64,000 nucleotides of DNA. Origin: an uncultured Planctomycetaceae bacterium (GTDB lineage: Bacteria > Planctomycetota > UBA8742 > UBA2392 > JABWBM01). The position numbers and the translations under genes were made by a program. The DNA lies in assembly GCA_964548115.1 (NCBI GenBank), contig CAZJPQ010000003.1, positions 490 through 64,489 on the forward strand. Direction: 5' to 3'. This document shows, piece by piece, positions 82 through 20,195 of this stretch (the first letter of the stretch is position 1; every line of letters begins with the position of its first letter). The notes under the pieces were generated by a model, which was given only the letters and a program-made list of their open reading frames with translations, was not told the origin of the DNA and made no database searches.

Positions 82-999
82 ATGTTCTATCGCTACTTCG
101 CTTCAATCATTACTTCCATGATCGCAGGAGTCATAATCACTGCATGCACATCATCCGGAGAAAATCCCTCGGATCAAAAGCATTCCAAGCAAAATGCCCT
201 CGCTTCTCAGGAAGAAAGCAATGCCTCTTCTGCTGCTCAAGATTCAGGCCGAAGATTTCCTGAGCTAGACCCTGAAACCGGTTTATTCAAAGGCATAGAG
301 GTCGAAGATGGATATAGAAAGTTAAAAGATCCAATTCAAAGTGAATCTCTTAAGCTTGCCCGCTACGGCTCAGAAGAGCTGCCATCAAACCTTGACCAGA
401 TTTTACGAGACGCTGCTCAAGAGTACCTTGCATGGAACCGGGTTGATGACCAACGCCCCCATTGGGCTCCTTTTGATTGTTCTCTTCCTTCTTCAGGTAA
501 AGGTCGAATCAGTGAAGCTGAAGGCTCAAAGAATCATGCTCAAAAACTCTACTACCTTTATGCCAGCAATCGCGCCCAATACCTGCGTGTAGGTTGGGAA
601 AAAGCAAAGGAAATCAATCAGCCCATTGGGCAAATTCTTGTTAAAGATTCCTTTAAGCCTGAAAAAAGCAAAGCCCCCGACATAGACCCCGCCAAAGGTC
701 CCTACGAAGAATTTTTAAAAGGACACAAGAAATCAAAGCATACAACGCCCTGGTGGCAGTATGCCAGGCAGGGAGAAGACTATTATAAACCAGGTGAACG
801 CTATGGTCTTTTTATGATGCTCAAGTTTGATCCTGAGATGCCAGGAACTGATCAGGGCTGGCTTTATGCTACGCTTTCAGCTGACGGCACAGAAGTGACA
901 AGCTCAGGCAGGGTGGAAAGCTGCATGGGTTGTCACGAAGAAGCCGAACAAGATCGAGTTTTTGGCATAAAACGGCAGAGCAATTACAAATTCAAGTAA
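82..999 (+). CDS. Lipoprotein with a C-terminal mono-heme cytochrome P460 / cytochrome c'-beta-like domain
   Basis: ATG at 82 with AGGAG 7 nt upstream. Signal peptide ending in lipobox IITAC. A low-complexity Ser/Gln/Glu linker follows. The C-terminal block LFMMLKFDPEMPGTDQGWLYATLSADGTEVTSSGRVESCMGCHEEAEQDRVFG carries a single CXXCH and matches my memory of the P460 family C-terminus. Confidence 0.55.
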   Translation: MFYRYFASIITSMIAGVIITACTSSGENPSDQKHSKQNALASQEESNASSAAQDSGRRFPELDPETGLFKGIEVEDGYRKLKDPIQSESLKLARYGSEELPSNLDQILRDAAQEYLAWNRVDDQRPHWAPFDCSLPSSGKGRISEAEGSKNHAQKLYYLYASNRAQYLRVGWEKAKEINQPIGQILVKDSFKPEKSKAPDIDPAKGPYEEFLKGHKKSKHTTPWWQYARQGEDYYKPGERYGLFMMLKFDPEMPGTDQGWLYATLSADGTEVTSSGRVESCMGCHEEAEQDRVFGIKRQSNYKFK

Positions 1000-1034: not shown

Positions 1035-2657
1035 TTAAAGAGCACAAGGGTTAAGGGAAATTGCTCTTGCTTCAAGCGCGGGAAAGGCTTTCATACCATG
1101 GAGCGAAAACTGAAAAGGATCAGCAGGCCAGTTATTCATTCCAGCCCAAAATACTCGGCGTGGCATGCTCTTCACCCGAGGCATAATACAAAAATCAAGC
1201 ACCTCTCGGAAGCCCTTATTAACAGGGCTTCCTCGGTGTACAATTCGATTAGCATCAAAAATTAAAAGCGTTCCAGCTTCACCTTGAACCCGATGAAGTT
1301 GTTTCTGATCATCGTAGTATTCAAACGGCCCTGTCTCTTCGTTGACGTCTGTTAAATAAAGAATAGCTCGAAAAACTCCTGGAGGACAGCCATCGCGATG
1401 AAAGTTTTGTGGTCCAGAAGCATTCTTTTGATCTTTGAGAGTAGAGCGAATGGGACGACAGTTCAGATAGACAACATCACCTCCCGCACAGGCTTGAATT
1501 AAGGGGGCGACTTCTTCTGAGTACATCAGCTTGAAGACCTCTTGCAACAAGCTTTCCGAAGGTTCAGCTGTCATCAGATTAGGATTTCCAGGCTTCAACG
1601 CATTGCCACTCCAATCAAGCCGTGCATGTCTGTTTCCCGTATCAAGCTTAAAATCAAGCTTTGAGCGTAATGATTCAGCCCGTTCACTTCCTAAACCAAG
1701 TGTTGTGATTGCGTTTGTTTTGAACTCTTCACTCCGTTTGGCAAGCACATTCTGATCAATGCCTTGATTCTCTATAGGAGCTTTTGCTTGAACAGCTTTC
1801 TGTTGAACGCGAGCTTTCAATGCCAACTCATAACGAGCAAGATTGACCGTAAATGGAGTTGAGTTCAAAGCATGCTCTAATACAAGTTCAAGTGATAAGG
1901 ATGCAGCCTTGCGATTAAGGTGAACCCCATCGCGCTCGAACTCTGGTAAAAGATAGCCATCCTTCGTAAGCTGATTCCAGGGATTCATAAAAGGAAGACC
2001 CAACTTCTTACAGATTTCTTCAGCTATATAGTTAAAAAGTCGCACCGATTTATAGCGAGTATCTAAAGGGCAAGGAAATTGGTTTATTTTTTCGAAAAGC
2101 TGATCATCACGAGTTGGTGGTGGTGCGGCGTGGTAGTAGACAAAAGGAAAACCGTTGTTTTTAAGCTGCGTTAAACCTTGAAGAAGAGGGGTAAGAATTT
2201 TTTGGATCAAACCTGCAACGGTATCAAGAGGCATGGTTGAAGCGTTTTTTTGACGCCCATAGGGAGTTTCAAAAGGCAAGATCAGGTCATAATCCGTCTT
2301 AAGCTCTTTCATAACAAGCTGCCGCAGCTCTACTTCACCACAGAGTACCAGTAGAAGCGGTGAAGCCTGTGCATGGCCAGCAGCATATTGAAGAGCAAGG
2401 TCTTGTGGCGTGATTGAAGTATAAACAATGGTGCTGTTTTGAGTGATAAGTTCACGAGCATAAAGGGCCTGAAGAAAGGATGCATTCACAGCACCTCTCT
2501 CGTCGATAAACTTTGATGCCTGCATTTCTGGGCAATAGGAAGATAAGGCAAGATAGTTCTGGCCCTGCTCGTGATCGTGCACGATTAAATCCTTATAGGC
2601 CAGAGAGTGAGCATCACCAATGGCATAAATACGAAATGGCTGGTCCAGAAGTTCCAA
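1035..2657 (-). CDS. Two-domain enzyme: N-terminal SGNH/GDSL-like hydrolase-like region fused to a C-terminal PhyH-like Fe(II)/2-oxoglutarate dioxygenase domain
   Basis: 540-aa ORF with a TTG start as given by the ORF track; AAGGGG lies about 10 nt upstream. N-terminal motifs IYAIGDAHS ... ERDGVHLN resemble SGNH blocks I and V. The C-terminal segment NFHRDGCPPG ... TGPFEY ... IVHRGSPV shows the HxD...H facial triad pattern of PhyH-like dioxygenases. Confidence 0.55.
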   Translation of the reverse strand: MELLDQPFRIYAIGDAHSLAYKDLIVHDHEQGQNYLALSSYCPEMQASKFIDERGAVNASFLQALYARELITQNSTIVYTSITPQDLALQYAAGHAQASPLLLVLCGEVELRQLVMKELKTDYDLILPFETPYGRQKNASTMPLDTVAGLIQKILTPLLQGLTQLKNNGFPFVYYHAAPPPTRDDQLFEKINQFPCPLDTRYKSVRLFNYIAEEICKKLGLPFMNPWNQLTKDGYLLPEFERDGVHLNRKAASLSLELVLEHALNSTPFTVNLARYELALKARVQQKAVQAKAPIENQGIDQNVLAKRSEEFKTNAITTLGLGSERAESLRSKLDFKLDTGNRHARLDWSGNALKPGNPNLMTAEPSESLLQEVFKLMYSEEVAPLIQACAGGDVVYLNCRPIRSTLKDQKNASGPQNFHRDGCPPGVFRAILYLTDVNEETGPFEYYDDQKQLHRVQGEAGTLLIFDANRIVHRGSPVNKGFREVLDFCIMPRVKSMPRRVFWAGMNNWPADPFQFSLHGMKAFPALEARAISLNPCAL

Positions 2658-2710
2658 TGTAGCAAAGCCCCTTGTACACGAATTTTAAAGCCTGAGCTCT
2701 TTTTTACAGC

Positions 2711-3814
2711 TTAAGACGACGATACAGAGCTACCAATAGCACTAAGATGTTCTTCAATCATGCGTTGATAGGAAAATTTTTCAAGAAAAGCTCTGAGTTT
2801 CTCTTCTTCAAATGAAAGTTGAACCATACTTTGCAGGGCTTGGGAAAATTGTCCAATCTCCTGACAATTGACGAGCTGACCGGCAGGACAGACTTCAAGA
2901 ATTTCTCGATAGGCCGGCGTGTCATGGGCAAGCACTGGTGTACCACAGGATAGTGCTTCAAGCAATCCAAGCCCAAAGGTTTCAGGCAACTGCGATGGAA
3001 AAACACAGAATTTCGCACCACGATAAAGACTGACACATTCAGGCTGGGAAAGCCTGCCTGTAAAGAGAATCTTTGAAGTACCTTCGGCTTGGGCTTTGAG
3101 CTCTTGCTCCTGGTTGCCCCCACCGGCCAGCACTAAAGTATAACCCTCCTCAAAAAGTTTACTTTTGTTCCAGGCCTGGAGTAATAGCTCAAGCCCTTTG
3201 CCCCGAGAAAGCCTGCCCAGATAGGCAACATATTTTTCGGGCAGCTCAGGTATCGCCCTCTGCTCTTTTGCCCACTCTGGATCAAGTCCATAGGGTATGA
3301 CCCTGACCCTCTTTTCAAGTGTAGGCTCGAGTTCGCAGGCTCTTTGCTTTACGGATAAACTTGGAACAATCAAACTTGGAGTTTGCCTCAGTACTTGAAG
3401 ACTTCGTTTTCGAGTGAGCTTGCGCTGCAAATAACGACCGTTCGAACGAATATCATCTCCATGGGCAACCACACTCAATACAACTCCCTGCTTTTGACAC
3501 CAATCTAAGGCCACCCAGCCTGGGTAATAAATAAAATGAGCTTGAAGAGCATCAATACGATGCAAAGCATGGAGCTTGCTCAGATGACGCCTGATGAAAT
3601 GAGCTCCAATTCCCCGCGACAAAGGCCGTGGGAAACGCACAAGCTTATAAGGCAAATTTTGAGGCAAAGCTAAAGGCTGTGGGTCAGAGGGAATTTGGGC
3701 CAGCACCGTAACTTCGTGATTGTTCTGAAGAAATCCTCGAGCAATTCGATCGATCGCTCTTTCAGCTCCCCCGATTTTTGGTAAAAAGGTCGAAGTAAAA
3801 AGACAAATATGCAT
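2711..3814 (-). CDS. GT4-family glycosyltransferase
   Basis: ATG start. N-terminal KIGGAERA motif and C-terminal ETFGLGLLEALSCGTPVLAHD (E-x7-E type) are GT4 hallmarks. Co-oriented with, and immediately upstream of, 1035..2657. Confidence 0.8.
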   Translation of the reverse strand: MHICLFTSTFLPKIGGAERAIDRIARGFLQNNHEVTVLAQIPSDPQPLALPQNLPYKLVRFPRPLSRGIGAHFIRRHLSKLHALHRIDALQAHFIYYPGWVALDWCQKQGVVLSVVAHGDDIRSNGRYLQRKLTRKRSLQVLRQTPSLIVPSLSVKQRACELEPTLEKRVRVIPYGLDPEWAKEQRAIPELPEKYVAYLGRLSRGKGLELLLQAWNKSKLFEEGYTLVLAGGGNQEQELKAQAEGTSKILFTGRLSQPECVSLYRGAKFCVFPSQLPETFGLGLLEALSCGTPVLAHDTPAYREILEVCPAGQLVNCQEIGQFSQALQSMVQLSFEEEKLRAFLEKFSYQRMIEEHLSAIGSSVSSS

Positions 3815-4080
3815 AAAATGTTTTCAACTCTTTGATTTTAAAGCTTTTCAAGCAAAAGTATAATCCCAGAAATTTTGCCTATAAATTGAGTCTACTTCAA
3901 AAAGAACAATTTCGTTATTCCGATTCAGAAAAAGCTGCTTTATTTCTGGTTTCATTGAATTCAAGACTTATAAGTAGAGTTATTATAAGGAGAGTAAACG
4001 CTCTTTTTTTCTCCTTCTGGTTTTAAAATACCCAGTATGAAAGTGTAAACCTCAAAAGCAATTCCCGGAAAACCTCTATC

Positions 4081-4458
4081 ATGCCGTTAATTCCTACTCA
4101 TGAAGTTTCGCCTGGCCGTATCCTTGCACGCCCAATTGAAGATTCCATGGGACGTATTCTCATTAACGAAGGTGAAATTTTAACTGAGCAACTGCTGGCA
4201 GTACTTCAAAAGCGTGGTTTTGTAGAAATCGATGTGCGGCCTGAAACAAAGGATCGCCGAACTGCGATGCTTGAACAAAAGGTTGAAAAACGCTTTACTG
4301 ATCGTATTCATGCCAACTCAGATGTGATTGCCCTTAAAAAAGAAATTGATCAGCGTTTTCATAATGTTTCTGAGCAAGACCCGCGAATGCAAACCATTCG
4401 GCTTATGACCCAAAAGGTTCTGGTTGAAAACTTGATGGAGACCCATAATCTTGAGTAA
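4081..4458 (+). CDS. Small cytoplasmic protein, DUF3391-like (N-terminal module often seen on HD-GYP/HDOD proteins)
   Basis: 125 aa. MPLIPTHEVSPGRILARPIEDSMGRILINEGEILTEQLLAVLQKRGFVEIDV fits the DUF3391 pattern from memory. Directly upstream of an HDOD gene. Confidence 0.45.
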   Translation: MPLIPTHEVSPGRILARPIEDSMGRILINEGEILTEQLLAVLQKRGFVEIDVRPETKDRRTAMLEQKVEKRFTDRIHANSDVIALKKEIDQRFHNVSEQDPRMQTIRLMTQKVLVENLMETHNLE

Positions 4459-4521
4459 GTTTTAAGACATTGCATTTTAATACCAGCTTTAAACTTTTAA
4501 CAGCTGTCACAAAGGATCTTG

Positions 4522-5406
4522 ATGAGCTCATCTGAACAGGAAAATGCGCTTGAATCACTCGAAGATATCGTGGGTGAAATAGGTGACTTGCCTACACTTC
4601 CAAGCGTAATCACACAAATTACCTCAATGACTTCAAACCCCCAGACAAACGCTGCTGATATTGGAAAGTTGATAGGAAATGACCCTTCCTTAAGCTCAAA
4701 AATTCTTAAGCTTATTAATTCTGCCTATTATGGCTTTCCTCGCAAGATTCAAAGCGTTACAAAAGCTATTGTTCTCCTGGGTTTTAATAAGGTGAAAAAT
4801 ATTGCCCTTTCAGCAAGCGTGCTTGATGCTTTCAAAGACAAAAATTCCCAAAGCATCCCAAACTTTGATTTCTATCAGTTTTGGGAACATTCGGTGAGTG
4901 TTGGGATCTGTGCTGAAGTCGTTGCAAAGCATACTCGAGCCCAGCTGACGGATGATGCTTTTATTGGTGGTCTGCTCCATGATGTTGGCAAGGTGATCAT
5001 TGCAATCTTTTTAGAAGAAGGGGCTGATATTTTCGCGAATGCTGAAGCAACAAAGCGTACCTTTTCCCAAGCAGCTTTAGAAAAAATTGAAATTGACGAA
5101 GCAAAAGTTGGAGCTTTACTGGCAGAACATTGGAACTTTCCAGAAAACCTTGTGCGTTCAATTCGCTACTCGATTCATCCTGATAAAACACGACAGTTTC
5201 GAGATGTGGTCGGTTGTATTCACCTTGGCAAGGTGTTAGCAAGCAGTCTTGGTTTTCCAGCCACTGGAGATCACGCCATGCCTGTTGTTTCAAGACAGGT
5301 ATGGGAGGAACTGGAACTGGAAGAAAGTAAGATCGAAGTGATGCTTCAAGATTCTTTGGTTGGTTTTCGTAATGCAACTGCCTTTCTGGAATTGGCCAAG
5401 GATTAA
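4522..5406 (+). CDS. HDOD-domain signalling protein
   Basis: ATG at 4522 preferred over the in-frame TTG at 4519; AAAGGA RBS upstream. Motifs LPTLPSVITQI, SAYYGF, GGLLHDVGK are typical of the HDOD domain. Confidence 0.75.
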   Translation: MSSSEQENALESLEDIVGEIGDLPTLPSVITQITSMTSNPQTNAADIGKLIGNDPSLSSKILKLINSAYYGFPRKIQSVTKAIVLLGFNKVKNIALSASVLDAFKDKNSQSIPNFDFYQFWEHSVSVGICAEVVAKHTRAQLTDDAFIGGLLHDVGKVIIAIFLEEGADIFANAEATKRTFSQAALEKIEIDEAKVGALLAEHWNFPENLVRSIRYSIHPDKTRQFRDVVGCIHLGKVLASSLGFPATGDHAMPVVSRQVWEELELEESKIEVMLQDSLVGFRNATAFLELAKD

Positions 5407-5528
5407 ATTCACCTTCAGGTATGCAAAAAGTGTTTCCTTTCGAAAAGATTCATGGCCAAAGGCTTATAGCATTGAAGAATAGAATAAAGTCTTAGAATAG
5501 TGTCTAACCTAGCAAGGCGTAAATACTC

Positions 5529-7208
5529 ATGGCTGAAGACGAAACAGCAAAAGTTGAGAAAAAAAAGAAACGTACAACGCTGAAGAGTGTTCGTGTTCAT
5601 GATATTCACAAGCTCCATACCCGCAGACTTGAAACCGATGATGAAAACCCATTTGAAAAGATTCATACGTTTTTGACCCACACTGGTAAGCTTTATGAGT
5701 CAAAAAGCATTGACGACCTTTATCGCTATGGCATCACTGCTGTGCGAACACTTTTTCACCTGCACTCATACCAGATTTTACACTACGGCTTTCAAAAGAA
5801 GCTTGTGCCCCTTGACATAGAACTGAAGGAAAAGCCACCAGAAGTTTCTCTCGACATTGAAGAAAGTTATGACGACATCGTTGCCTGGGCTTTCGAATCT
5901 CAACAAGTGCTCTTTTATGATACCAAAGATGCTGGTTCAGAAGAGATTGCTTCGATTGGCATTCTCCCCATTGCAAGTAGTCAAAACCACAAGGTTGCTA
6001 TTGTACTTTGGCTGGCAGAATCTATTGATGAGATGAACGTACTGCAGGTTGATATGCTGCAGATTCTTGCCCGTGATATTGCATCTCGCAGTCTGGCACT
6101 TTTACAAGAACAGCGACAAGCCAGGCTCTCCAGCCTTTTTGACAACATAATGGAATCGGTTCCTCACGCTATTGTAGCCATAGCTGGAGATGATCGAGTT
6201 ATTGCCATCAATTCAAATACAGAGTTTCTCTTCGGAGTCAAACGCATCTTTGTGATGGATGAGCCCTACAAAGAGGTCTTTAGCCAGGAAATCGCTGAAA
6301 CATTTGAGAATTTCATCAACCATAGTTTGATGGGGCGTGAATTGAGCGATACGGAAATCGAACATCGCCTCTCCGATGGCACCCCAATTCATATTGGTGT
6401 TTCCATGAACTATTTAAAGGACAGGAACGGCCAGCCCCAGGGATATCTTTTTCTTTGCCGTGATCTTTCACTTTCTCAAGAAGTACTGAAACTGCGTGAA
6501 CTTGACAAGATGAAGTCTGAATTTGTGAATACGGTCAGCCACGAGCTTAAGACTCCTTTAACTGCTATTCTTGGTGGACTTGAGATTATTGAATCTGAAC
6601 CAGAAAGCATCCCTGAAGATATGCAGGAAATCCTGGATATCGTAAGTGGTGGCGCCCAACGACTGCGTGACTTGATCTTTGATTTGCTTGATGTTGCGAG
6701 GCTTGAATCAGGGCGGATTGAGCTGCGCGAACAGGAATGCCATCTCAAAGATATTGTTCAGGAGGCCTTGCGGGTTCAAACTCCAGGCAAAAACCATACC
6801 ATCAAGCTTGAAATTGATGACGCACTTCCTGCGATTATGATGGATAAGGCAAAAATTCTGCAATGCCTTACAAATTATATCTCAAATGCGATCAAGTATT
6901 CTCCTGATGGAGGCCAAGTCACGGTGAAGATTGACCTGGAACCGGAATCAAGAAGTGCCGTGGTTGGGGTCAGTGACCAAGGTGTAGGGCTGAGCCCAAA
7001 GCATAAGGATAAGGTTTGGCAAAAATTCTTCCGAGTTGATGCGGGCTATACTTCCGAAATAGAAGGAACGGGGTTAGGGCTTGTGATTGTCAAACATATC
7101 ATTGAACTCCACGGTGGACGGGTTTGGATTGATTCTGAGCTTGGCAAAGGGAGTACGTTTTATTTCTCGCTGCCCCTCCACCGCAATGAAAATAAAGATG
7201 AACACTGA
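5529..7208 (+). CDS. Soluble sensor histidine kinase (GAF-like/PAS sensory region, HisKA, HATPase_c); no receiver domain
   Basis: H-box VSHELKTPLTAI. N box ISNAIKYSP. G boxes DQGVGL and GTGLGL. No predicted TM segments. Confidence 0.85.
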   Translation: MAEDETAKVEKKKKRTTLKSVRVHDIHKLHTRRLETDDENPFEKIHTFLTHTGKLYESKSIDDLYRYGITAVRTLFHLHSYQILHYGFQKKLVPLDIELKEKPPEVSLDIEESYDDIVAWAFESQQVLFYDTKDAGSEEIASIGILPIASSQNHKVAIVLWLAESIDEMNVLQVDMLQILARDIASRSLALLQEQRQARLSSLFDNIMESVPHAIVAIAGDDRVIAINSNTEFLFGVKRIFVMDEPYKEVFSQEIAETFENFINHSLMGRELSDTEIEHRLSDGTPIHIGVSMNYLKDRNGQPQGYLFLCRDLSLSQEVLKLRELDKMKSEFVNTVSHELKTPLTAILGGLEIIESEPESIPEDMQEILDIVSGGAQRLRDLIFDLLDVARLESGRIELREQECHLKDIVQEALRVQTPGKNHTIKLEIDDALPAIMMDKAKILQCLTNYISNAIKYSPDGGQVTVKIDLEPESRSAVVGVSDQGVGLSPKHKDKVWQKFFRVDAGYTSEIEGTGLGLVIVKHIIELHGGRVWIDSELGKGSTFYFSLPLHRNENKDEH

Positions 7209-7465
7209 CTTCGTTTATCCAGAGAAGACTTCCAAGCTGAAGCATGGGGCACAGCCGCACGCTTTCACACAAAAAGAGCTCGTCACAAGAATAGCTTTGT
7301 ACAAAGCTCAAATTATATGCCATCAAGGTTGATTTATGCGGATAAAAGACATATCGTCTTGCTATTCGAATAAAAGGCTATTGAAGAACCTGAACTCTGG
7401 AATGAAGAAGCACCCCAGGCCTTTGGCTGGCTCATAATTTTTATAAAGAGATTAAGACCAACACT

Positions 7466-9526
7466 ATGAAAACGACTTATCAATGGCTTGAAAGCTATCT
7501 TAAAAGCGGCAAAAAGCCCGAAGAACTTGCTTCCTTGCTCACCTTTTCAGGAACTGAAGTTGAAGAATTGAAAACACTTCCTGATAACGATGTGGTGATG
7601 GCGTTAGAAGTAACCTCGAACCGTACTGATTGCCTGGGCGCACTTGGCCTTGCCCGTGAATTGAGTACATGTCTCAGCATTCCGCTCATTGAACCAGAAG
7701 TCTATTCAAGCTTCTCGCAGGCAGAACCTGGTTTTCAGGTTTCCATTCAGGATGAGAGCTTGCTGGCCTGTCCTTTTTACTCTGCTCAAGTCATTCGAGA
7801 TGTCCGTGTCGGTCCCTCTCCTGAATGGCTTCAAAAACGTCTTGAAGCTCTTGGTTGTGCATGTGTTAATAATATTGTTGATATCACAAACTTTGTACTT
7901 TTTGAATACTCCCAACCTCTCCACGCTTTTGATCTTCAAGCCTTGCCTCAGCCTGAAATCACGGTTCGTCAGGCCAGAGCAGATGAAACGTTCAAAGCCT
8001 TAAATCATCGCTCCTACCGTTTAGATCCTTCGGATCTTGTAATCACAAGTGGTCAAGAGGTCGTTGCTTTAGCTGGTATCATGGGTGGGCTTACAAGTGA
8101 GGTAAGCGACTCAACCATTGATATCCTTTTAGAATCCGCTTACTTTACCCCAAAAGGCATTAAAGCCACTGGCCGGAAGCTTGATCAACAGCACAGCGAC
8201 ATTCTTTTCTCTGAATCACGCTTTCGGTTTGAACGAGGGGTTGACCCAGCTGGTGCTCTTAAAGCCATCCAGAGAGCAACTCAGTTAATCCTTGAGATTG
8301 CCGGTGGAAAAGCAATTGGGACTCCCTTAAGAGCGGGAGAGGCTCAAGCTCTCTGGCGTGAAAAACTTGCTTTTCGCCCCTCAAGCTTTGAACGAATTAT
8401 GGGCAAAAGCATAAGCCTTGAACGCTCGAAACAGATTTTCTCTTTGCTTGGTTTGAGGGCCAACTCAACAGAGCAATCAGATTTCATCGAGGTCGAAATA
8501 CCAAGCTTTCGGCCAGATTTAAAGCGAGAAGCTGATCTGATTGAAGAGCTTGCTCGCATTGAAGGGCTTGATAGCTTTCCTGCAAGAGTTCATTTGCCTC
8601 TGGTCGCTTCTGCTCGTAACAGTGCGCAAGAAATAAGCCAGAAAGCCTGTGATATTATTCGTGGTTTTGGCTTCAACGAAGCCCTCACCGATACCTTTGT
8701 CCCAACACAGGGAGCCTATGCTCTGAGTCCCTGGACTGAGCAAACTCCCCTGGAAGCTCGTTCACCAGTGAACCAAAAACGCCCAGCTCTACGATGCTCA
8801 TTGATGCCGAGTCTCATCGAAGCCTTTACTCATAATTTACGCCATGGCAACACAGAGCTCAGCCTTTACGAAAAAGCGAACATCATCTTACCAAATCCTC
8901 AAACAACTCAAGCTCCTGAAGAGCGTGAAGTCCTGGCCTTGATTGGAGCTGATTTCTTCTCTATCAAAGGAGCACTAACTGGCCTTTTCAAACGTCTTCA
9001 TATTCCAAACCTGGAAGCTTACCCTTTTGCTTTTCCGCTTTTTGGAGAAGACTCTGGTTTGGGTTATTGGTCAAAAGACCAAAACCAAGAAACGACTCAA
9101 CCTTTAGCTATCTTTGGTCTGCTTGATCAAAGCATCCAGACAACTTTTGACTTCATTGGGCCATGTGCATTGGCAGAGATTAATCTTACTCCTTTACTTC
9201 GCCTACGCCAAACGAGTCCACGCTTTCGCCCCCTGCCTCGTTTCCCTGAAATTAACCGTGATCTTGCCTTCATTCTTGACCAAGACATTCCCTTTGCCGA
9301 TGTTCAAAAATTAAGCGAACAACACGCTGGAAAGTTTTTACGTTCGTTAACCTTTCTGGATGAATTTCGTGGCAAGCAGATTCCAAAAGGCAAAAAATCT
9401 CTAGCCTTTCGACTCTGCTTCTCTGCTGAAGATCGCACCCTTGAGCATGATGAAATAAATGTTTTTATTCGTGAGATCGTTGATGCTTTTAAAAAGAAAT
9501 TTCAAGCAGAACTCCGGGATACTTAG
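7466..9526 (+). CDS. pheT: Phenylalanine--tRNA ligase beta subunit, short form lacking the N-terminal tRNA-binding OB insertion
   Basis: ATG start. B3/B4 and B5 regions and a C-terminal FDX-ACB-like domain are recognisable. SNRTDCLG follows directly after the N-terminal helix instead of the ~100-aa EMAP-type insert. 686 aa, against ~800 aa typical. Confidence 0.9.
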   Translation: MKTTYQWLESYLKSGKKPEELASLLTFSGTEVEELKTLPDNDVVMALEVTSNRTDCLGALGLARELSTCLSIPLIEPEVYSSFSQAEPGFQVSIQDESLLACPFYSAQVIRDVRVGPSPEWLQKRLEALGCACVNNIVDITNFVLFEYSQPLHAFDLQALPQPEITVRQARADETFKALNHRSYRLDPSDLVITSGQEVVALAGIMGGLTSEVSDSTIDILLESAYFTPKGIKATGRKLDQQHSDILFSESRFRFERGVDPAGALKAIQRATQLILEIAGGKAIGTPLRAGEAQALWREKLAFRPSSFERIMGKSISLERSKQIFSLLGLRANSTEQSDFIEVEIPSFRPDLKREADLIEELARIEGLDSFPARVHLPLVASARNSAQEISQKACDIIRGFGFNEALTDTFVPTQGAYALSPWTEQTPLEARSPVNQKRPALRCSLMPSLIEAFTHNLRHGNTELSLYEKANIILPNPQTTQAPEEREVLALIGADFFSIKGALTGLFKRLHIPNLEAYPFAFPLFGEDSGLGYWSKDQNQETTQPLAIFGLLDQSIQTTFDFIGPCALAEINLTPLLRLRQTSPRFRPLPRFPEINRDLAFILDQDIPFADVQKLSEQHAGKFLRSLTFLDEFRGKQIPKGKKSLAFRLCFSAEDRTLEHDEINVFIREIVDAFKKKFQAELRDT

Positions 9527-9597
9527 AGAGTCCATACTCTGTGAAACTCTCATACCACAAACAAAATATTCGCAAGTAAAAAAGCAGGAAGAAAACC

Positions 9598-10353
9598 ATG
9601 AGCTACAAACTTATAAAAGTAGAAAAATCAGGAGCACTTGTCACGATTACGCTTCAACGCCCCGATGTCATGAACGCTCTTAACAAGGCTATTGTAGACG
9701 AGCTTTCCCAAGCTTTCGATGAGCTCCGCAATGATTCTGAAGCAGGTTGTATTATTCTTACTGGCAGTGGTGAAAATTTTGCAGCTGGTGCTGATATCAA
9801 AGAACTCAAGGAACGGTTAGCTCCTGAATCTCTTGATGCCATTAATTCTGGCCTCTTTAAAAAGATTGAAGATCATCCTTTGCCAGTGATTGCGGCTATT
9901 AAAGGCTATTGTCTTGGAGGAGGCTGTGAACTTGCACTGGCCTGCGATATACGCCTTGCGGGGAGAAGTGCAAAATTCGGTCAACCCGAGGTCGGACTTG
10001 GAATTATTCCTGGTGCTGGAGGGACTCAACGTTTACCTCGCATTATTGGCCTTGGACGTGCCAAAGAATGGGTTCTCAGTGCTTGGATCTATGACGCAGA
10101 AGAAGCCTACCGAATAGGTTTAGTAAACAGCTTAGTTGAAGATGAAGAGCTTTTAACCAAAGCTCAAGAATTTGCGACAAGAATTCTCAAACGTGGAAAA
10201 TTAGCTGTGCGCGTTGCTAAAATGGCTTTAAACACCTCTACACGCACAGGCGTTGAAACAGGCCTGCTCTTTGAATCGACTGCTCAAGCAATGCTTTTTG
10301 AATCACAGGATAAAATGCAACGAATGCAGGCTTTTCTTGAACGGAAAAAATAA
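9598..10353 (+). CDS. Enoyl-CoA hydratase/isomerase (crotonase family)
   Basis: AGGAAG RBS. Oxyanion-hole and active-site region AAIKGYCLGGGCELALACDIR ... FGQPEVGLGIIPGAGGTQRL. Confidence 0.9.
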   Translation: MSYKLIKVEKSGALVTITLQRPDVMNALNKAIVDELSQAFDELRNDSEAGCIILTGSGENFAAGADIKELKERLAPESLDAINSGLFKKIEDHPLPVIAAIKGYCLGGGCELALACDIRLAGRSAKFGQPEVGLGIIPGAGGTQRLPRIIGLGRAKEWVLSAWIYDAEEAYRIGLVNSLVEDEELLTKAQEFATRILKRGKLAVRVAKMALNTSTRTGVETGLLFESTAQAMLFESQDKMQRMQAFLERKK

Positions 10354-10406
10354 CAACTCGAAAAAACAATACATAACCGCAGATAAAGAAACCTGGAGGA
10401 ACCCTC

Positions 10407-13052
10407 ATGCTTGAAGGATTAAGCGGATCAGAAAGTTTTGAACGAGCCCAGAGTTTGCATCGAGCTCAACTTGAAAGTCTTCATGAACATACAGAACAGC
10501 ACTACACAGCTGGAAAGTCTTCTTATAAGCCTTTTTATACAGAACATACTCCTCGACGCTATTCTCGTTCCCGAGTGGTTGATCTCAAACACATCAAACT
10601 TGAAATAAGCTTTGAAATTGAGAAAAAGAAGTTGCTCGGAAAAGCCGAGATAACATGCATTCCCTTAACTGAAGATGTACGCTCCTTAACTCTTGATGCT
10701 TGTGATATGAAATTTGGGGACATCAGCGCTCAGGGCCTCTCATTGACTTCTTCCTACGACGGAGCAAAACTGCGAATTGATTTTGACCGCGCTCTTGAGG
10801 CTGATCAGGAAGTCACACTCTCTATTCCTTATAGTGTTACAGATCCTAAAGCTGGCATTTACTTCGTAGGCCCCGACGAACATTACCCGGATAAACCCTT
10901 TGAAATCTGGACTCAGGGACAAGATGAAGATTCCCGTTACTGGTTTCCCTGTTTTGATTACCCCAACGAAAAAGCTACCAGTGAAATCATCGTCAGTGTG
11001 CCAGCTCGTTTTAATACGCTTTCCAATGGAGCACTCTTGAGTGTCCAGGAATCCGGAGAAAATAAGGTTTTCCATTGGAAGCATGATGTTCCTCATGTTG
11101 CTTATCTCGTGACCCTTGTTGTTGGAGAGTATGAGGAAGTTAAAGCTGATGCTGACGGCATTCCCGTAAGCTATTACTACCATCCAGGAGATGAAGAAAA
11201 AGCCCGCAACTCTTTTGCAGATACACCCGAAATGGTGAAATTCTTCAGTAAACGCATTGGCGTTGCCTATCCTTACGCTAAATATAGTCAAATTCCAGCA
11301 ACTGACTTTATCTTTGGTGGTATGGAAAATACGACCGCAACAACTCAAACAGCCTTCACCCTTCACGACAACCGCGCTCACCTTGACTTCTCATCAAACT
11401 CCCTCGTAAGTCATGAATTAGCTCATCAATGGTTTGGAAACCTGTTAACCTGCAGGGACTGGAGCCATGGTTGGCTCAACGAAGGCTTTACAACCTACAT
11501 GGAGTGCTGCTGGGAAGAAGAAGAAAGAGGCAAAGAAGAGTTCCAATACTATATGCTGACAGAAATGGAAAGCTATCTTGAAGAAGATAAGCAAAGCTAC
11601 CGCCGTGCACTTGTCTGCAACCGCTATCAGGAACCCATCGACCTCTTTGATCGCCACCTCTACGAAAAAGGAGCCTGTGTTCAACACATGCTGCGTTTTA
11701 TCCTTGGTGAGCGGCTGTTCTGGAAAGCAATCAAGCATTACACCACAACCAATCGCGAGCGTTGTGTTGTGACAGCCGATTGGCAACGGGCAATTGAAGA
11801 AGCTACCGGCCAAAACCTTGATGAATTCTTTGATCAATGGGTATTCGGTGGTGGTCATCCTGATTTTAAAGTAAGCTTCTCTTATGATAGTGATAAGAAA
11901 CTTGCAGCTCTCAAGGTTCAGCAAACCCAAAAAACAAATGATCTCACAGCCATCTTTAAACTTCCTGTAGCAATTGCTTTCAGCATGCTTGACGAAAATA
12001 AAGCAAAGATTACAGAACGCCAAGAACACACCATCAAGGTTGACCGTTCAGAACAAACCTTTTATTTACCACTTGATTTCGAACCTGACTTCATCACCTT
12101 TGATGTCGGCAACTGGATTCTGAAAACCCTTGATCTTTCAGGTCTAAGCGAAGAAATGCTGATGAAACAATTGCTCCATGACAGCGATGTTATTGGTCGA
12201 GTCCACGCCGCTCGTGAACTCGGCAAAAAAGGCAGCAGCCGGGCAGTTGAAACCCTTGAAAAAATTCTTGGAATTGACGCTCCCTGGTTTGTCCACGCTG
12301 CTGCGGCTAAAGCCCTTGGTGCAATTGGCAAAAGCACCTGCCTTGAGGCTTTACTCAACCACAAAAAAATTGAGCATCCAAAAGCACGCAGGGCTGTTAT
12401 TCAGGCTCTTGGAGAATTTCGCCACGATACAAAAGCAGCTGATGCTCTACTGGAAGTTGCCGTTCAGGGAGATGCCAGTTATTTTGTAGAAGCTGAAGCC
12501 TGCCATTCCCTAGGCAAAAGCCGAGACAGCCGAGCAAAAACGGAGCTGATTAAAATCCTTCAAAACCGTGAAAGCTTTAACCAAGTCGTCCAGGTTGCAG
12601 CGATTCAAGGACTTGTCGCCCTCCAGGACTTAAGCGCCCTTGAAGAAATTCAAAGCGCTGCTGCCCTTGGCAAGCCAATACGCTTACGCTTTAACGCCCT
12701 TAGCTTCCTTGGAAAACTTGCTGCACTGGCCCCTGAAAATCAAAAAATTCTACTGCGGCAGTTTCTCGAAGAAAGACTTGAAGAAAAAGATTTCTTTGCT
12801 TCCCTGGGTACCATCTCTGGATTAACAGCCCTTGGCGATCCCGCAGCCATACCAGCATTAGAACGCAAGGAACGCTTAAGTGTTGATGGCCGCGTTAAAA
12901 CACGGGCTCGCAAAGCAGTTGAAGCACTGGCTTCAAAGCGTACAACACCCCAGCAGGTACAAGGCTTGCGGGACGATCTTGATCAACTCAAAAAAGAAAA
13001 ACATGAACTTCTGGAACGACTTGAGAAACTTGAATCTCTTCAGGCTTCTTGA
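10407..13052 (+). CDS. M1-family aminopeptidase N-like protein with C-terminal PBS-lyase-type HEAT repeats and a terminal coiled coil
   Basis: GGAGGA RBS. GGMEN exopeptidase motif (FGGMENTT). Zinc-binding motif HELAHQWFGN plus NEGFTTYME. C-terminal repeated ARELGKKGSSRAVETL / AAAKALGAIG HEAT-like units, then LRDDLDQLKKEKHELLERLEKLE. Confidence 0.85.
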   Translation: MLEGLSGSESFERAQSLHRAQLESLHEHTEQHYTAGKSSYKPFYTEHTPRRYSRSRVVDLKHIKLEISFEIEKKKLLGKAEITCIPLTEDVRSLTLDACDMKFGDISAQGLSLTSSYDGAKLRIDFDRALEADQEVTLSIPYSVTDPKAGIYFVGPDEHYPDKPFEIWTQGQDEDSRYWFPCFDYPNEKATSEIIVSVPARFNTLSNGALLSVQESGENKVFHWKHDVPHVAYLVTLVVGEYEEVKADADGIPVSYYYHPGDEEKARNSFADTPEMVKFFSKRIGVAYPYAKYSQIPATDFIFGGMENTTATTQTAFTLHDNRAHLDFSSNSLVSHELAHQWFGNLLTCRDWSHGWLNEGFTTYMECCWEEEERGKEEFQYYMLTEMESYLEEDKQSYRRALVCNRYQEPIDLFDRHLYEKGACVQHMLRFILGERLFWKAIKHYTTTNRERCVVTADWQRAIEEATGQNLDEFFDQWVFGGGHPDFKVSFSYDSDKKLAALKVQQTQKTNDLTAIFKLPVAIAFSMLDENKAKITERQEHTIKVDRSEQTFYLPLDFEPDFITFDVGNWILKTLDLSGLSEEMLMKQLLHDSDVIGRVHAARELGKKGSSRAVETLEKILGIDAPWFVHAAAAKALGAIGKSTCLEALLNHKKIEHPKARRAVIQALGEFRHDTKAADALLEVAVQGDASYFVEAEACHSLGKSRDSRAKTELIKILQNRESFNQVVQVAAIQGLVALQDLSALEEIQSAAALGKPIRLRFNALSFLGKLAALAPENQKILLRQFLEERLEEKDFFASLGTISGLTALGDPAAIPALERKERLSVDGRVKTRARKAVEALASKRTTPQQVQGLRDDLDQLKKEKHELLERLEKLESLQAS

Positions 13053-17507: not shown

Positions 17508-18713
17508 ATGAACGAGTTTATCCAATATTACACGGAACATGGGATATCACCGGTAAGTCAAGATATTCAAGACTTTCAAAATCATATGAATCGTCGTTCT
17601 GCTCTTTACCGCACTCTAGGCCTTACACCAAAGTTATTTCAAAACCGAGAGCTGCTCGAAGTAGGACCTGGCAGTGGCTATAACTCTATTGTGTCCGCAA
17701 GCTTTGGTCCTGCTCGTTATACCCTTTTAGAACCAAACCCTACGGGCTTTCAAGCAATGCTGAAGCTCTTCGAAAAACACCACCAAAACCATCAGCTCAA
17801 AAAAGAAGCCCTACACTTCCATAATCTAAGCCTTGAAAATTACCCAGGCCAAGAATCTTACGATATTGTTCTTTGTGAAGGCCTGATGGCTGGGCTCAAC
17901 AACCAGGAAAACTTTCTTGGCCAGCTTGATAAACGGCTTCGGTCTGGTGGCATTCTTGTTCTCACCTGTTCTGATCCTGTTTCCATGCTCTTTGAAAGCT
18001 GTCGTCGCTACCTTGCTCGTTTGATGTTGGCACGCGCTGACCTTTCACTTGAAACGGGCGATGATAGTGCCAAAAAATCTTCGAGACTGGAAAAGCAGGT
18101 TGATCTCTTGGAAGAATGTTTCAGCTCTCATCTTCAAAGTTTGAAGGGCCGAAGTCGCCCAATCCGAGATTGGATTCTTGACAACCTTCTCAACCCTGCA
18201 GCTGACAGCGCCTCAGCTCACAACGCTTTCAGCCTTTTGCAAGCTCTCAACATCCTTGGAAAGCATTATTATTTTTACCATAGCTCTCCAAACATTTTTC
18301 ACGACGCCCGCTGGTACAAAAACCTTCCAGCATCACCACAGGACTACAACGCACCAGTCCTTCAGCAATACTATCAGTTTCTTCACACCTTTGTAGATTA
18401 CAGGCTTGAAATCACCCCCCGTTTTGAGCAACAGAACCAAGAGCTTCTCAAAGCTTCTCGAGCTTTTGCGGACTTCGTTTGTACTTTTCAACCCCTTCAA
18501 CCTCAACGAGAGAAAGCCCTGGAATTGCTTAAACAAATCTGCGCGAATTTAAGAGAGTACGAAGAAACGGCAGCTGCTCTAATCCAAGCTCGAGCCTTAA
18601 TAGAAAAAGATGAACTTCAAGCTCAGGATATCAATGAAGCACGTGATTTTGCAGCTGCCTTTGGACGCGGCATGCAGTATATCAGTCTTGAAAAAACCTT
18701 TGATTTGAAGTAG
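17508..18713 (+). CDS. Class I SAM-dependent methyltransferase with a ~150-aa C-terminal extension
   Basis: Motif I LLEVGPGSGYNS. Motif II/post-I DIVLCEGLM. 401 aa. Ends 4 nt before the bioA reading frame. Confidence 0.8.
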   Translation: MNEFIQYYTEHGISPVSQDIQDFQNHMNRRSALYRTLGLTPKLFQNRELLEVGPGSGYNSIVSASFGPARYTLLEPNPTGFQAMLKLFEKHHQNHQLKKEALHFHNLSLENYPGQESYDIVLCEGLMAGLNNQENFLGQLDKRLRSGGILVLTCSDPVSMLFESCRRYLARLMLARADLSLETGDDSAKKSSRLEKQVDLLEECFSSHLQSLKGRSRPIRDWILDNLLNPAADSASAHNAFSLLQALNILGKHYYFYHSSPNIFHDARWYKNLPASPQDYNAPVLQQYYQFLHTFVDYRLEITPRFEQQNQELLKASRAFADFVCTFQPLQPQREKALELLKQICANLREYEETAAALIQARALIEKDELQAQDINEARDFAAAFGRGMQYISLEKTFDLK

Positions 18714-18797
18714 TCAATGGAAACACTTCCCACAAAACCAACTGTTGGCAAAAAATATAATTTAAAACTCACAAACTTTAAACCTTTCTTAATACTC

Positions 18798-20195
18798 ATG
18801 GATAAAACCCAAAAACAAAATTATTACGACCAACTTGATCAAGCTCATGTTTGGCATCCTTATACCCAAATGAATGAATATCCAGGCCGAGCTGGCTCGT
18901 TGATTGTGGAGCGAGGGGAAGGCCCTTTTGTATTCGACATCCAAGGACAACGCTATATTGATGGTTATGCTCAAATGTGGTGTAACCTTTGGGGACACAC
19001 TCAACCTGAGATAAACCAAGCTATTAAAGATCAACTTGACCGCATTGCACACAGCAGTTTATTTTCAGCTTCCAATGTTCCTGCGATTGAGCTTGCGCAT
19101 GCTCTGCACCTCTTTATCAAAGAAGAATTTCAAAATCTGGACATCGAACTTCCACACGTCTTTTTCTCTGATAATGGCAGTACAGCCGTTGAAGTCGGTT
19201 TAAAGATGGCCTTACAGTACCACCTGAACCGTAAAGAAAAGCGTACTCGCTTTCTCACTTTTCATGACGCCTATCACGGAGACACTGGGGCAACCATGAC
19301 CCTAGGAGGTATCGAGATCTTTCGCAAAGCCTATGAACCACTGACGTTTGAAGTCTTGCGCACTGACTACCCCATGCAAAGCAATACTTTTGATGCAGCC
19401 TGCGAAAAAGAATCAAATGCTTACAAAGAAGCCTGCGAAAAACTCACAACCCTCTTTGCACAGCATGGTTCAGAACTTGCAGCCGTTGTGATTGAACCTG
19501 GCTGCCAGGGCGCTGGCGGCGTACGGCCTTGCTATCCAGGTTTTCTTAAACTTCTTCGGAAGCTGTGTGACCAGCACCATGTTCTGCTGATTTGCGATGA
19601 AATCTTAACTGGCTTTGGGCGCTGTGGAGAAAGTTTTGCATCCAAAAAAGAAGGTGTTGCCCCCGATATTCTCTGCCTGAGCAAAGGACTTACAGCTGGT
19701 TATCTTCCTCTCGCCGTCACTATGGCTCGCCCCTTTATTTATCAAAGCTTTTTAGGCAAACGAGAAGAATTTAAACACCTGCTTCATGGTCATACCTTTA
19801 CTGGCAATCAACTTGGATGTGCTGCAGCCTTAGCAAGCTTAAAACTACTGCAGCAAGAAAAGCTTATCCAGCAACTCCAAAAACAGGAACCCTTTATCCA
19901 ACAACAGCTCCAAAAACTCGCAACGATTCCCGGTGTAGGAAGAATTCGCCATTACGGCATGATGATTGGAATTCCCCTGGAAGAAAAACACGCAGGCCAT
20001 AATAGCGAAGGCTACGAAAACACATCAGGCCATCAACTTTGTGCTAGAGCCCAGGAGCAGGGATTAATTGTACGTCCTCTTGGGAATGTTATCGTACTGA
20101 TGCCTGTGCTGGCCACTCCTCAAGCCGTACTTGGTGAAACTTTTGATATTCTTGAGAAATGCCTGCTTGAACATGCCGCCGGTAAATTCACTTAG
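18798..20195 (+). CDS. bioA: Adenosylmethionine-8-amino-7-oxononanoate aminotransferase
   Basis: The HVWHPYTQM N-terminal motif aligns with the E. coli BioA N-terminus, so the ATG at 18798 is preferred over the track's 18717. PLP lysine region DILCLSKGLTAGY. The ATG at 18717 would add about 27 extra residues and cannot be excluded. Confidence 0.85.
   Translation: MDKTQKQNYYDQLDQAHVWHPYTQMNEYPGRAGSLIVERGEGPFVFDIQGQRYIDGYAQMWCNLWGHTQPEINQAIKDQLDRIAHSSLFSASNVPAIELAHALHLFIKEEFQNLDIELPHVFFSDNGSTAVEVGLKMALQYHLNRKEKRTRFLTFHDAYHGDTGATMTLGGIEIFRKAYEPLTFEVLRTDYPMQSNTFDAACEKESNAYKEACEKLTTLFAQHGSELAAVVIEPGCQGAGGVRPCYPGFLKLLRKLCDQHHVLLICDEILTGFGRCGESFASKKEGVAPDILCLSKGLTAGYLPLAVTMARPFIYQSFLGKREEFKHLLHGHTFTGNQLGCAAALASLKLLQQEKLIQQLQKQEPFIQQQLQKLATIPGVGRIRHYGMMIGIPLEEKHAGHNSEGYENTSGHQLCARAQEQGLIVRPLGNVIVLMPVLATPQAVLGETFDILEKCLLEHAAGKFT

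Follow-up and report, generated by a model that had tools for sequence, protein, structure and literature searches.

In a 64-kb stretch of DNA from an uncultured Planctomycetaceae bacterium (hereafter the window; open reading frames (ORFs) and neighbouring genes were read within these 64 kb), a gene at positions 1035-2657 on the minus strand encodes a 540-amino-acid (aa) protein that joins an N-terminal SGNH-fold domain to a C-terminal Fe(II)/2-oxoglutarate (2OG) oxygenase domain. This gene truly belongs to a bacterial fusion family that is widely scattered and uncharacterised. As a whole, we lean towards the explanation that the family couples hydroxylation with O-acylation and that the window copy has become an oxygenase-only member. 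The window copy most likely acts as a hydroxylase alone: the nucleophile Ser of its SGNH domain is replaced by Ala16, neither a GSCFA gene nor a paralogue was found in the 64 kb, and its Fe/2OG site is complete.

The window protein has an SGNH fold and an oxygenase fold

An AlphaFold2 model of the 540-aa protein was built from an 88-sequence family alignment and gave a mean predicted local distance difference test score (pLDDT) of 95.4 and a predicted template modelling score (pTM) of 0.92. In the model, aa 1-285 (1803-2657, minus strand) form the three-layer alpha/beta/alpha fold of the SGNH superfamily, and aa 301-540 (1038-1757, minus strand) form the double-stranded beta-helix (cupin) fold of a 2OG/Fe(II) oxygenase, PhyH-like by fold. 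The linker between them, at about aa 286-300 (1758-1802, minus strand), varies in length in relatives, with large insertions in P0002 and P0003, and aa 290-295 within it are the sole segment with pLDDT below 50. The top Foldseek matches of the model were KanJ and OkaE (E ~5e-10), covering about half of the query (query-normalised TM-score ~0.26), and no solved structure spanning both domains was found among the PDB fold matches. A sequence search of the protein against PDB chains and an NCBIfam scan gave no match, and literature searches for an SGNH/2OG fusion returned nothing relevant. A preliminary description of this locus, made from the sequence alone, had proposed an SGNH-like domain fused to a PhyH-like dioxygenase in an architecture without characterised precedent; at the level of fold this proved correct by AlphaFold2 and Foldseek, and no precedent turned up in the PDB or literature searches. 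The motifs it quoted were all found, namely GDAHS at aa 14-18, DGVHLN at 243-248, NFHRDG at 418-423 and IVHRGSP at 472-478, and conservation in the family shows that they did not arise by chance. No signal peptide was evident, and the protein is predicted to be cytoplasmic.

The SGNH nucleophile is replaced by Ala16 in the window copy

Active-site residues were counted in an alignment of 92 full-length family representatives. Block I of the family reads G-D/E-S-H, with G14 in 90/92, D or E at position 15, and S16 and H17 in 83/92 each. The window protein reads G14-D15-A16-H17 where all six closest homologues have Ser, and it therefore lacks the block I nucleophile Ser (G-D-S) of the SGNH superfamily (Pfam clan CL0264). 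Ala16 is encoded by GCT at 2610-2612 (minus strand), one base from TCT. Block V, D243-G-V-H246 (1920-1931, minus strand), which holds the acid and base of the SGNH triad, is kept; D243 and H246 are each conserved in 86/92 representatives, and in the family profile alignment the block matches, in register, the DGVH/DGLH motifs of SGNH enzymes with solved structures. The earlier assignment of GDAHS and DGVHLN to SGNH blocks I and V thus holds for block V and fails for block I, in which Ala16 stands in place of the nucleophile.

Where oxyanion-hole residues were sought (block II Gly and the block III Asn of GxND), G107, which follows a beta strand, is found in 89/92 representatives in a motif G-D/E-I/V-D (GEVE in the window) without the canonical block III Asn. 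A conserved Asn, N209, is situated in the helix preceding block V. Pfam Lipase_GDSL_2 was sub-threshold on the window protein (E 0.089, 13.7 bits, cutoff 32.9, aa 199-250), and a curated SGNH model was matched at E<=0.01 by 36 of 88 relatives (best 1.1e-5). With Ser changed to Ala16 and the block III Asn absent family-wide, the active esterase or deacylase envisaged in the preliminary description is not supported for the window copy, and in practice an esterase annotation of the gene should be avoided. Ser18 was considered as a substitute nucleophile and rejected, since position 18 varies between family members (C, S, V, A or T).

The ratio of N- to C-domain identity, measured against both-site members, was 0.76 for the window protein, with a family median of 0.80 and a range of 0.61-0.93. 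Among the seven other members that have lost the N-terminal site, five lie at 0.45-0.62, P0021 at 0.74 and P0137 at 0.75. The normal ratio of the window copy suggests that the loss of Ser16 is recent, or an error, or that the domain is selected for a non-nucleophilic role.

The Fe(II)/2OG site of the window copy is complete

The HRD...H triad read earlier in the C-terminal half is intact. The proximal His and the Asp of the Fe(II) facial triad lie in H420-R-D422 (1392-1400, minus strand), and the distal Fe ligand H474 lies 10 residues before R484 (1206-1238, minus strand), which from the usual PhyH-type spacing would bind the C5-carboxylate of 2OG. The window protein accordingly shows the HxD/E...H facial triad, and H420, D422 and H474 are invariant in its seven closest homologues. 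Together with R484 they form an all-or-none set, present in 52/92 representatives. Other residues are kept nearly universally regardless of the triad: W349, P425, G462 and a C-terminal NNWPxDPF motif (P511 in 92/92). Two Pfam models gave sub-threshold matches, 2OG-FeII_Oxy_3 (E 0.0034, 18.7 bits, cutoff 27, aa 420-482) and 2OG-Fe_Oxy_2 (E 0.021, 15 bits, cutoff 23.1), and Pfam PhyH (PF05721) had no match in the window protein. The Fe/2OG site of the window copy (H420, D422, H474, R484) is complete, and it sits in a confidently modelled PhyH-type fold.

The fusion defines a sizeable bacterial family

A word-indexed homologue search found six relatives only, all full length and 35-49% identical, and its repetition with an alignment of these six gave no further ones. 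An exhaustive HMMER scan of 1.84 billion cluster representatives (clusters at 50% identity) yielded 485 matches at E<=1e-3, 229 at E<=1e-10 and 115 at E<=1e-30; among the 150 best matches listed, most were 500-570 aa long and aligned across residues 1-540. In species-representative genomes, members were found in metagenome-assembled genomes (MAGs) of Gamma- and Alphaproteobacteria, in Sphingomonas sp. TDK1, in Pirellula and in Gemmataceae. Apparent stand-alone homologues were also seen, both N-only (~270 aa) and C-only (~240-330 aa). Members carry the Joint Genome Institute names 'hypothetical protein' or 'lysophospholipase L1-like esterase', and no curated model for the fusion family was found in Pfam or NCBIfam. 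With 485 clusters at 50% identity, the fused architecture therefore makes up a family of considerable size in Proteobacteria and Planctomycetes, to which no function has been assigned; both superfamilies are well known, so no new kind of chemistry is implied.

A few members bear extra domains. In 3/88 members, for example the 903-aa P0034, in which the family match starts at residue 385, GSCFA is fused on the same polypeptide (best E 1.5e-52). These GSCFA fusions provide Rosetta-stone evidence for joint action of GSCFA and the SGNH-oxygenase protein.

A PipG-like GSCFA protein is the conserved partner of the family

GSCFA was listed in a 2022 review as an SGNH-clan family without known function (PMC9487903). 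As shown by the loci of relatives, a GSCFA gene (PF08885) lies directly beside the fusion gene in 15/18 informative loci, nearly always immediately upstream. A TylF-type methyltransferase is nearby in ~8 loci, and several loci lie inside sugar-nucleotide or heptose clusters, with SIS/GmhA-like and HldE-like genes, epimerases, a split transketolase, sugar C-/O-methyltransferases, a sulfotransferase and a tetratricopeptide-repeat (TPR)-GT41 protein. Further contexts include AT3 acyltransferases, tryptophan-halogenase-like genes and a squalene-hopene cyclase. Literature searches for the TylF/heptose contexts gave nothing relevant. In the 64-kb window, neither a GSCFA/PipG homologue, adjacent or elsewhere, nor a second fusion-family member was found.

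A GSCFA protein with a role in O-acetylation was described in a 2025 study of pseudotetraivprolide biosynthesis, which concerns detoxin/rimosamide-like natural products of Pseudomonas entomophila (PMC12828459). There, the 2OG dioxygenase PipE hydroxylates the product, and when pipD, pipF or pipG is deleted, O-acetylation of the PipE-made hydroxyl is abolished (PMC12828459). PipG is the GSCFA protein, and pipF always adjoins pipG (PMC12828459). PipF has an SGNH fold with Ser18/Asp208/His211, and its S18A and H211A variants were inactive in vivo (PMC12828459). We compared the family with the Pip protein sequences from the supplement of that paper (PMC12828459). The GSCFA neighbours of the fusion family were 35-46% identical to PipG (E 1e-43 to 1e-66) at 15 distinct loci, the duplicate copies L002, L003 and L020 not being counted as distinct. 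No homologue of PipD or PipF was found in any family locus by tblastn.

The Pip system is the closest working analogue, with a homologous GSCFA partner and the same SGNH fold and motifs. In both cases, a 2OG dioxygenase and an adjacent GSCFA protein go together with an SGNH-fold protein that bears an N-terminal GDSH Ser and a C-terminal DxxH. Features common to PipF and the N domain are the unusual GDSH block I, an LPP motif past the central strand and DxxH, and the nearest solved structures of the two are largely the same (2HSJ, 7PZG, 3P94, 7DDY, 8GR2, 4PPY and others). The two systems differ in that the oxygenase and the SGNH unit are separate in Pip and on one polypeptide in the fusion family, and in that the family lies among sugar, methyltransferase or other genes and not in nonribosomal peptide synthetase-polyketide synthase contexts. 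The window copy differs further in lacking a GSCFA gene in the 64 kb and the nucleophile Ser. Since the conserved partner is PipG-like, and PipG is implicated in the transfer of an O-acetyl group to a hydroxyl made by a 2OG oxygenase, the 'deacylate' chemistry of the preliminary description is not supported; the partner points to hydroxylation followed by O-acylation.

Active sites are lost separately across the family

Among the 92 representatives, both sites are kept in 44, the Ser/Asp/His site only in 39, the Fe/2OG (His/Asp/His/Arg) site only in 8, the window copy included, and neither site in 1. The GSCFA adjacency follows an intact SGNH site and not the oxygenase site. For example, the Sphingomonas member (L012) has lost the Fe triad and kept GDSH/DxxH and its GSCFA neighbour. 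An alphaproteobacterial MAG (L007) carries two adjacent, convergent fusion paralogues with complementary dead sites, at 8174-9718 (plus strand) and 9719-11398 (minus strand). The first has lost Ser/Asp/His and kept His/Asp/His/Arg, and the second has kept GDSH/DxxH, lost the Fe triad and adjoins GSCFA at 11344-12411 (minus strand). In L017, an intact 799-aa copy (5601-8000) stands between GSCFA and an N-dead 758-aa copy (8001-10277). Otherwise, members without the N-terminal site are orphans that lack GSCFA, as in L016 and the window. This pattern suggests, from a small sample, that both chemistries serve one pathway and that the inactive fold is retained structurally, since it is what would then be expected. 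The complementary losses between members and between adjacent paralogues amount to a natural experiment on domain interdependence.

Several further observations were made at these loci. The L017 order over 3792-10277 is TylF methyltransferase, GSCFA, the 799-aa both-site member and the 758-aa N-site-dead member, and beyond it lie methyltransferases, a sulfotransferase, heptose-pathway genes (SIS_2, PfkB/CTP_transf_like, epimerases) and a TPR-GT41 protein. Both L017 members carry C-terminal extensions of ~200 aa of unassigned nature. On the P0043 contig, an N-dead fusion is followed by GSCFA and then by a 287-aa protein without a Pfam match, with a GT2 gene nearby; the size of the 287-aa protein fits stand-alone N domains (e.g. 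P0120, 287 aa). In the both-site alphaproteobacterial locus L009, a squalene-hopene cyclase lies directly downstream of the fusion gene, and directly upstream lies a gene (8641-9687) for a 348-aa protein of GSCFA-like size without a Pfam match, which may be a very divergent GSCFA partner.

The fusion family differs from known oxygenases and SGNH proteins

The PhyH-type sugar and natural-product oxygenases KanJ, HygX, AviO1/EvdO2, SnoK and EasH are only 14-20% identical to the fusion family. Unlike them, the fusion family has the NNWPxDPF motif and an N-terminal SGNH domain, and in 40/92 of its full-length representatives the domain persists without its metal triad. Comparison was also made with Lipase_GDSL_2-type hydrolases (the sialate O-acetylesterase 7PZG and the platelet-activating factor acetylhydrolase-like 2HSJ) and with the acyltransferases PatB, OatA and AlgX. 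In contrast to these SGNH/GDSL proteins, the fusion family has His right after Ser (GDSH) and has G-D/E-I/V-D, with no Asn, at the block III position; its N domain is ~285 aa long with insertions and is, by the same prediction as above, cytoplasmic, and in the window copy Ala takes the place of Ser.

An SGNH fold without activity has a precedent in the OSK domain of Oskar, which is inactive and is listed as RNA-binding (PMC9487903). Like OSK, the window protein keeps the SGNH fold without the catalytic Ser, presumably for binding or scaffolding. OSK differs in being eukaryotic and in having lost the whole triad, whereas the window protein has lost Ser only and keeps Asp and His.

A GT4 glycosyltransferase gene precedes the fusion gene in the window

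Both ORFs named in the preliminary description were found at the positions it gave, co-oriented on the minus strand, with the glycosyltransferase family 4 (GT4) gene 5' of the fusion gene. The GT4 gene (2711-3814, minus strand) encodes a 367-aa GT-B glycosyltransferase. Its identity was upheld by two GT-B Pfam domains above threshold, Glycos_transf_1 (7.5e-27, 94.4 bits) and Glyco_transf_4 (1.9e-20, 74 bits), and by the EX7E motif ETFGLGLLE at aa 278-286 (2957-2983, minus strand). Its best solved relatives were PimA, a lipid-acceptor mannosyltransferase (E 7e-11), and its best full-length NCBIfam alignment was to a glycolipid synthase, far below cutoff. A 121-aa ORF in another frame (2758-3123, minus strand) lies wholly within the GT4 gene and is almost certainly spurious.

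The fusion gene starts with TTG at 2657, the first possible start after an in-frame stop, and ends with TAA at 1035-1037. The spacer between it and GT4 is 53 bp long (2658-2710, minus strand) and contains an AAGGGG Shine-Dalgarno-like motif ~10 nt upstream of the TTG. A terminator scan found no terminator-like site or hairpin in this spacer, and from this arrangement the fusion gene is probably co-transcribed with GT4, which is plausible but unproven. Promoter and terminator matches in the region were no commoner than in shuffled sequence, so these scans neither prove nor disprove co-transcription. The base composition of the gene pair was unremarkable compared with its neighbours.

The pairing with GT4 was not conserved. 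No homologue of the window GT4 was found in any of the relatives' loci searched, and no fusion gene adjoins the nearest GT4 homologue (P0158, 50% identity). The synteny check named in the preliminary description thus came out negative, and the comparative data do not support the three-activity module with GT4 that it had suggested.

Proposed mechanism and points that weigh against it

By analogy with Pip, the oxygenase domain of the family would first hydroxylate a substrate carbon, and the SGNH domain and its GSCFA partner would then transfer an O-acyl group, probably acetyl, onto a hydroxyl. Such a sequence would mirror PipE followed by PipF/PipG in detoxin/rimosamide-like pathways. In the window copy, the protein would act as a 2OG-dependent hydroxylase only, since a domain with Ala16 should form no acyl-enzyme, and the SGNH domain would be kept as a scaffold, that is, as a structural or substrate-binding module. 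The protein may act on the product or the acceptor of GT4. Probable co-transcription with GT4 makes a glycosylated substrate, a glycolipid or other glycoconjugate, a reasonable guess that is weakly supported; the substrate assignment is the weakest step of the mechanistic reading. The near-constant pairing with a PipG-like GSCFA protein gives a testable hypothesis on the role of GSCFA outside detoxin-type clusters, and it bears on how cytoplasmic SGNH-fold proteins couple O-acyl transfer to oxygenase-installed hydroxyls.

Several points weigh against this explanation. Homology between PipF and the N domain was not demonstrated: phmmer gave no match, and the N-domain hidden Markov model scored 4 bits. 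In hhalign, the full alignment reached a probability of 1.5%, and a trimmed N-domain profile compared with a PipF family alignment drawn from metagenomes gave a weak match (E 0.0014, probability 18%, 100 in-register columns), with E 0.23 for a GSCFA control. On these comparisons, PipF appears to be an analogue of the same fold and not a proven orthologue, so that the GSCFA partner is the main ground for the parallel with Pip. The oxygenases of the two systems share a superfamily but differ in subfamily: PipE is described as TauD-like, whereas the oxygenase of the fusion family is PhyH-like by fold, and the Pip substrate is a peptide-polyketide and not a sugar. The both-site relatives L009 and L014 have no detectable GSCFA nearby. 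The link to GT4 is adjacency in one genome only, and a GSCFA gene or a paralogue may lie in the source genome beyond the 64 kb searched. Finally, Ala16 (GCT versus TCT) could reflect an error in sequencing or a mutation of very recent date, since conservation elsewhere in the N domain matches that of active members.

A stronger form of the same idea is that the family is a single-polypeptide hydroxylate-then-O-acylate enzyme, with interdependent domains and acting only in complex with a GSCFA protein of the PipG-like type, and that the window copy is an oxygenase-only derivative recruited to a GT4-made glycoconjugate. We regard this form as tentative and on balance doubtful. If it is true, the GSCFA family would gain a general role well beyond detoxin-type pathways, and the interdependence of the domains would explain both the repeated loss of one site with the fold kept and the adjacent paralogues with complementary dead sites.

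Alternative explanations

It is unlikely, though worth weighing, that both domains of the window protein are active and form with GT4 a deacylate/hydroxylate/glycosylate module, Ala16 being tolerated, replaced (e.g. by Ser18) or an error. D243, H246, G14, D15, H17 and G107 are all kept, the N domain of the window copy is diverging no faster than in active members, the GCT codon is one base from TCT, and GT4 is adjacent and co-oriented, all of which would fit such a module. However, Ser16 is conserved in 83/92 representatives, position 18 is variable, and in PipF the corresponding S18A variant had lost its function in vivo. In addition, the GT4 pairing occurs in no relative, and the window lacks the conserved GSCFA partner.

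A window copy that is a decaying remnant, parted from a GSCFA/TylF cluster and without selected function, with GT4 beside it by chance, appears improbable to us. The gene is an orphan among housekeeping genes, with its nucleophile lost and no partner gene in the window, and no relative closer than ~40-49% identity was found, so that purifying selection is not measurable. Yet its 540-codon frame is intact, and nearly all family-conserved residues besides Ser16 are kept, the other departures being conservative (E108, E110, A212). The complete Fe/2OG set and the NNWPxDPF motif are also retained, the AlphaFold2 model is very confident, and identity to the family is normal in both domains.

An artefact in which misassembly or a frameshift joined two genes, a possibility raised in the preliminary description and consistent with the stand-alone N-only and C-only homologues, is effectively refuted by conservation of the fusion across many lineages (over 90 independent full-length representatives with both domains, drawn from a range of phyla and data sources), by the continuous reading frame and by the compact predicted structure (pTM 0.92).

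Other features of the window

The inspected surroundings of the gene pair are housekeeping genes, namely those for PheT, enoyl-CoA hydratase, an M1 peptidase, NadC, glutamate dehydrogenase, ATP synthase gamma and BipA, indicating that the pair is not embedded in a glycan or natural-product cluster. An Rfam scan of the window found no RNA family.

The P460 lipoprotein gene that the preliminary description placed next to the fusion gene is indeed a neighbour (82-999, plus strand), but it converges on the fusion gene, with 35 bp between it and that gene's stop codon, and nothing ties the two together; a role for it was considered and rejected. It encodes a predicted lipoprotein of 305 aa (N-terminal ...VIITAC), in which the Cytochrome_P460 match is confined to the last ~65 residues (E 2e-8) and the first ~230 residues have no family assignment.

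On the other side, a divergently transcribed signalling cluster adjoins the gene pair (4081-7208, plus strand). It comprises a 125-aa protein without family, an HDOD-domain protein (E 1.4e-58) and a 559-aa protein in which a histidine-kinase H-box, SHELKTPL, was read by eye from the sequence. Further along, at 17508-20195 (plus strand), a 401-aa class I methyltransferase is directly followed by a 492-aa class III aminotransferase; they lie among housekeeping genes and are a possible small tailoring pair, unrelated to the fusion.

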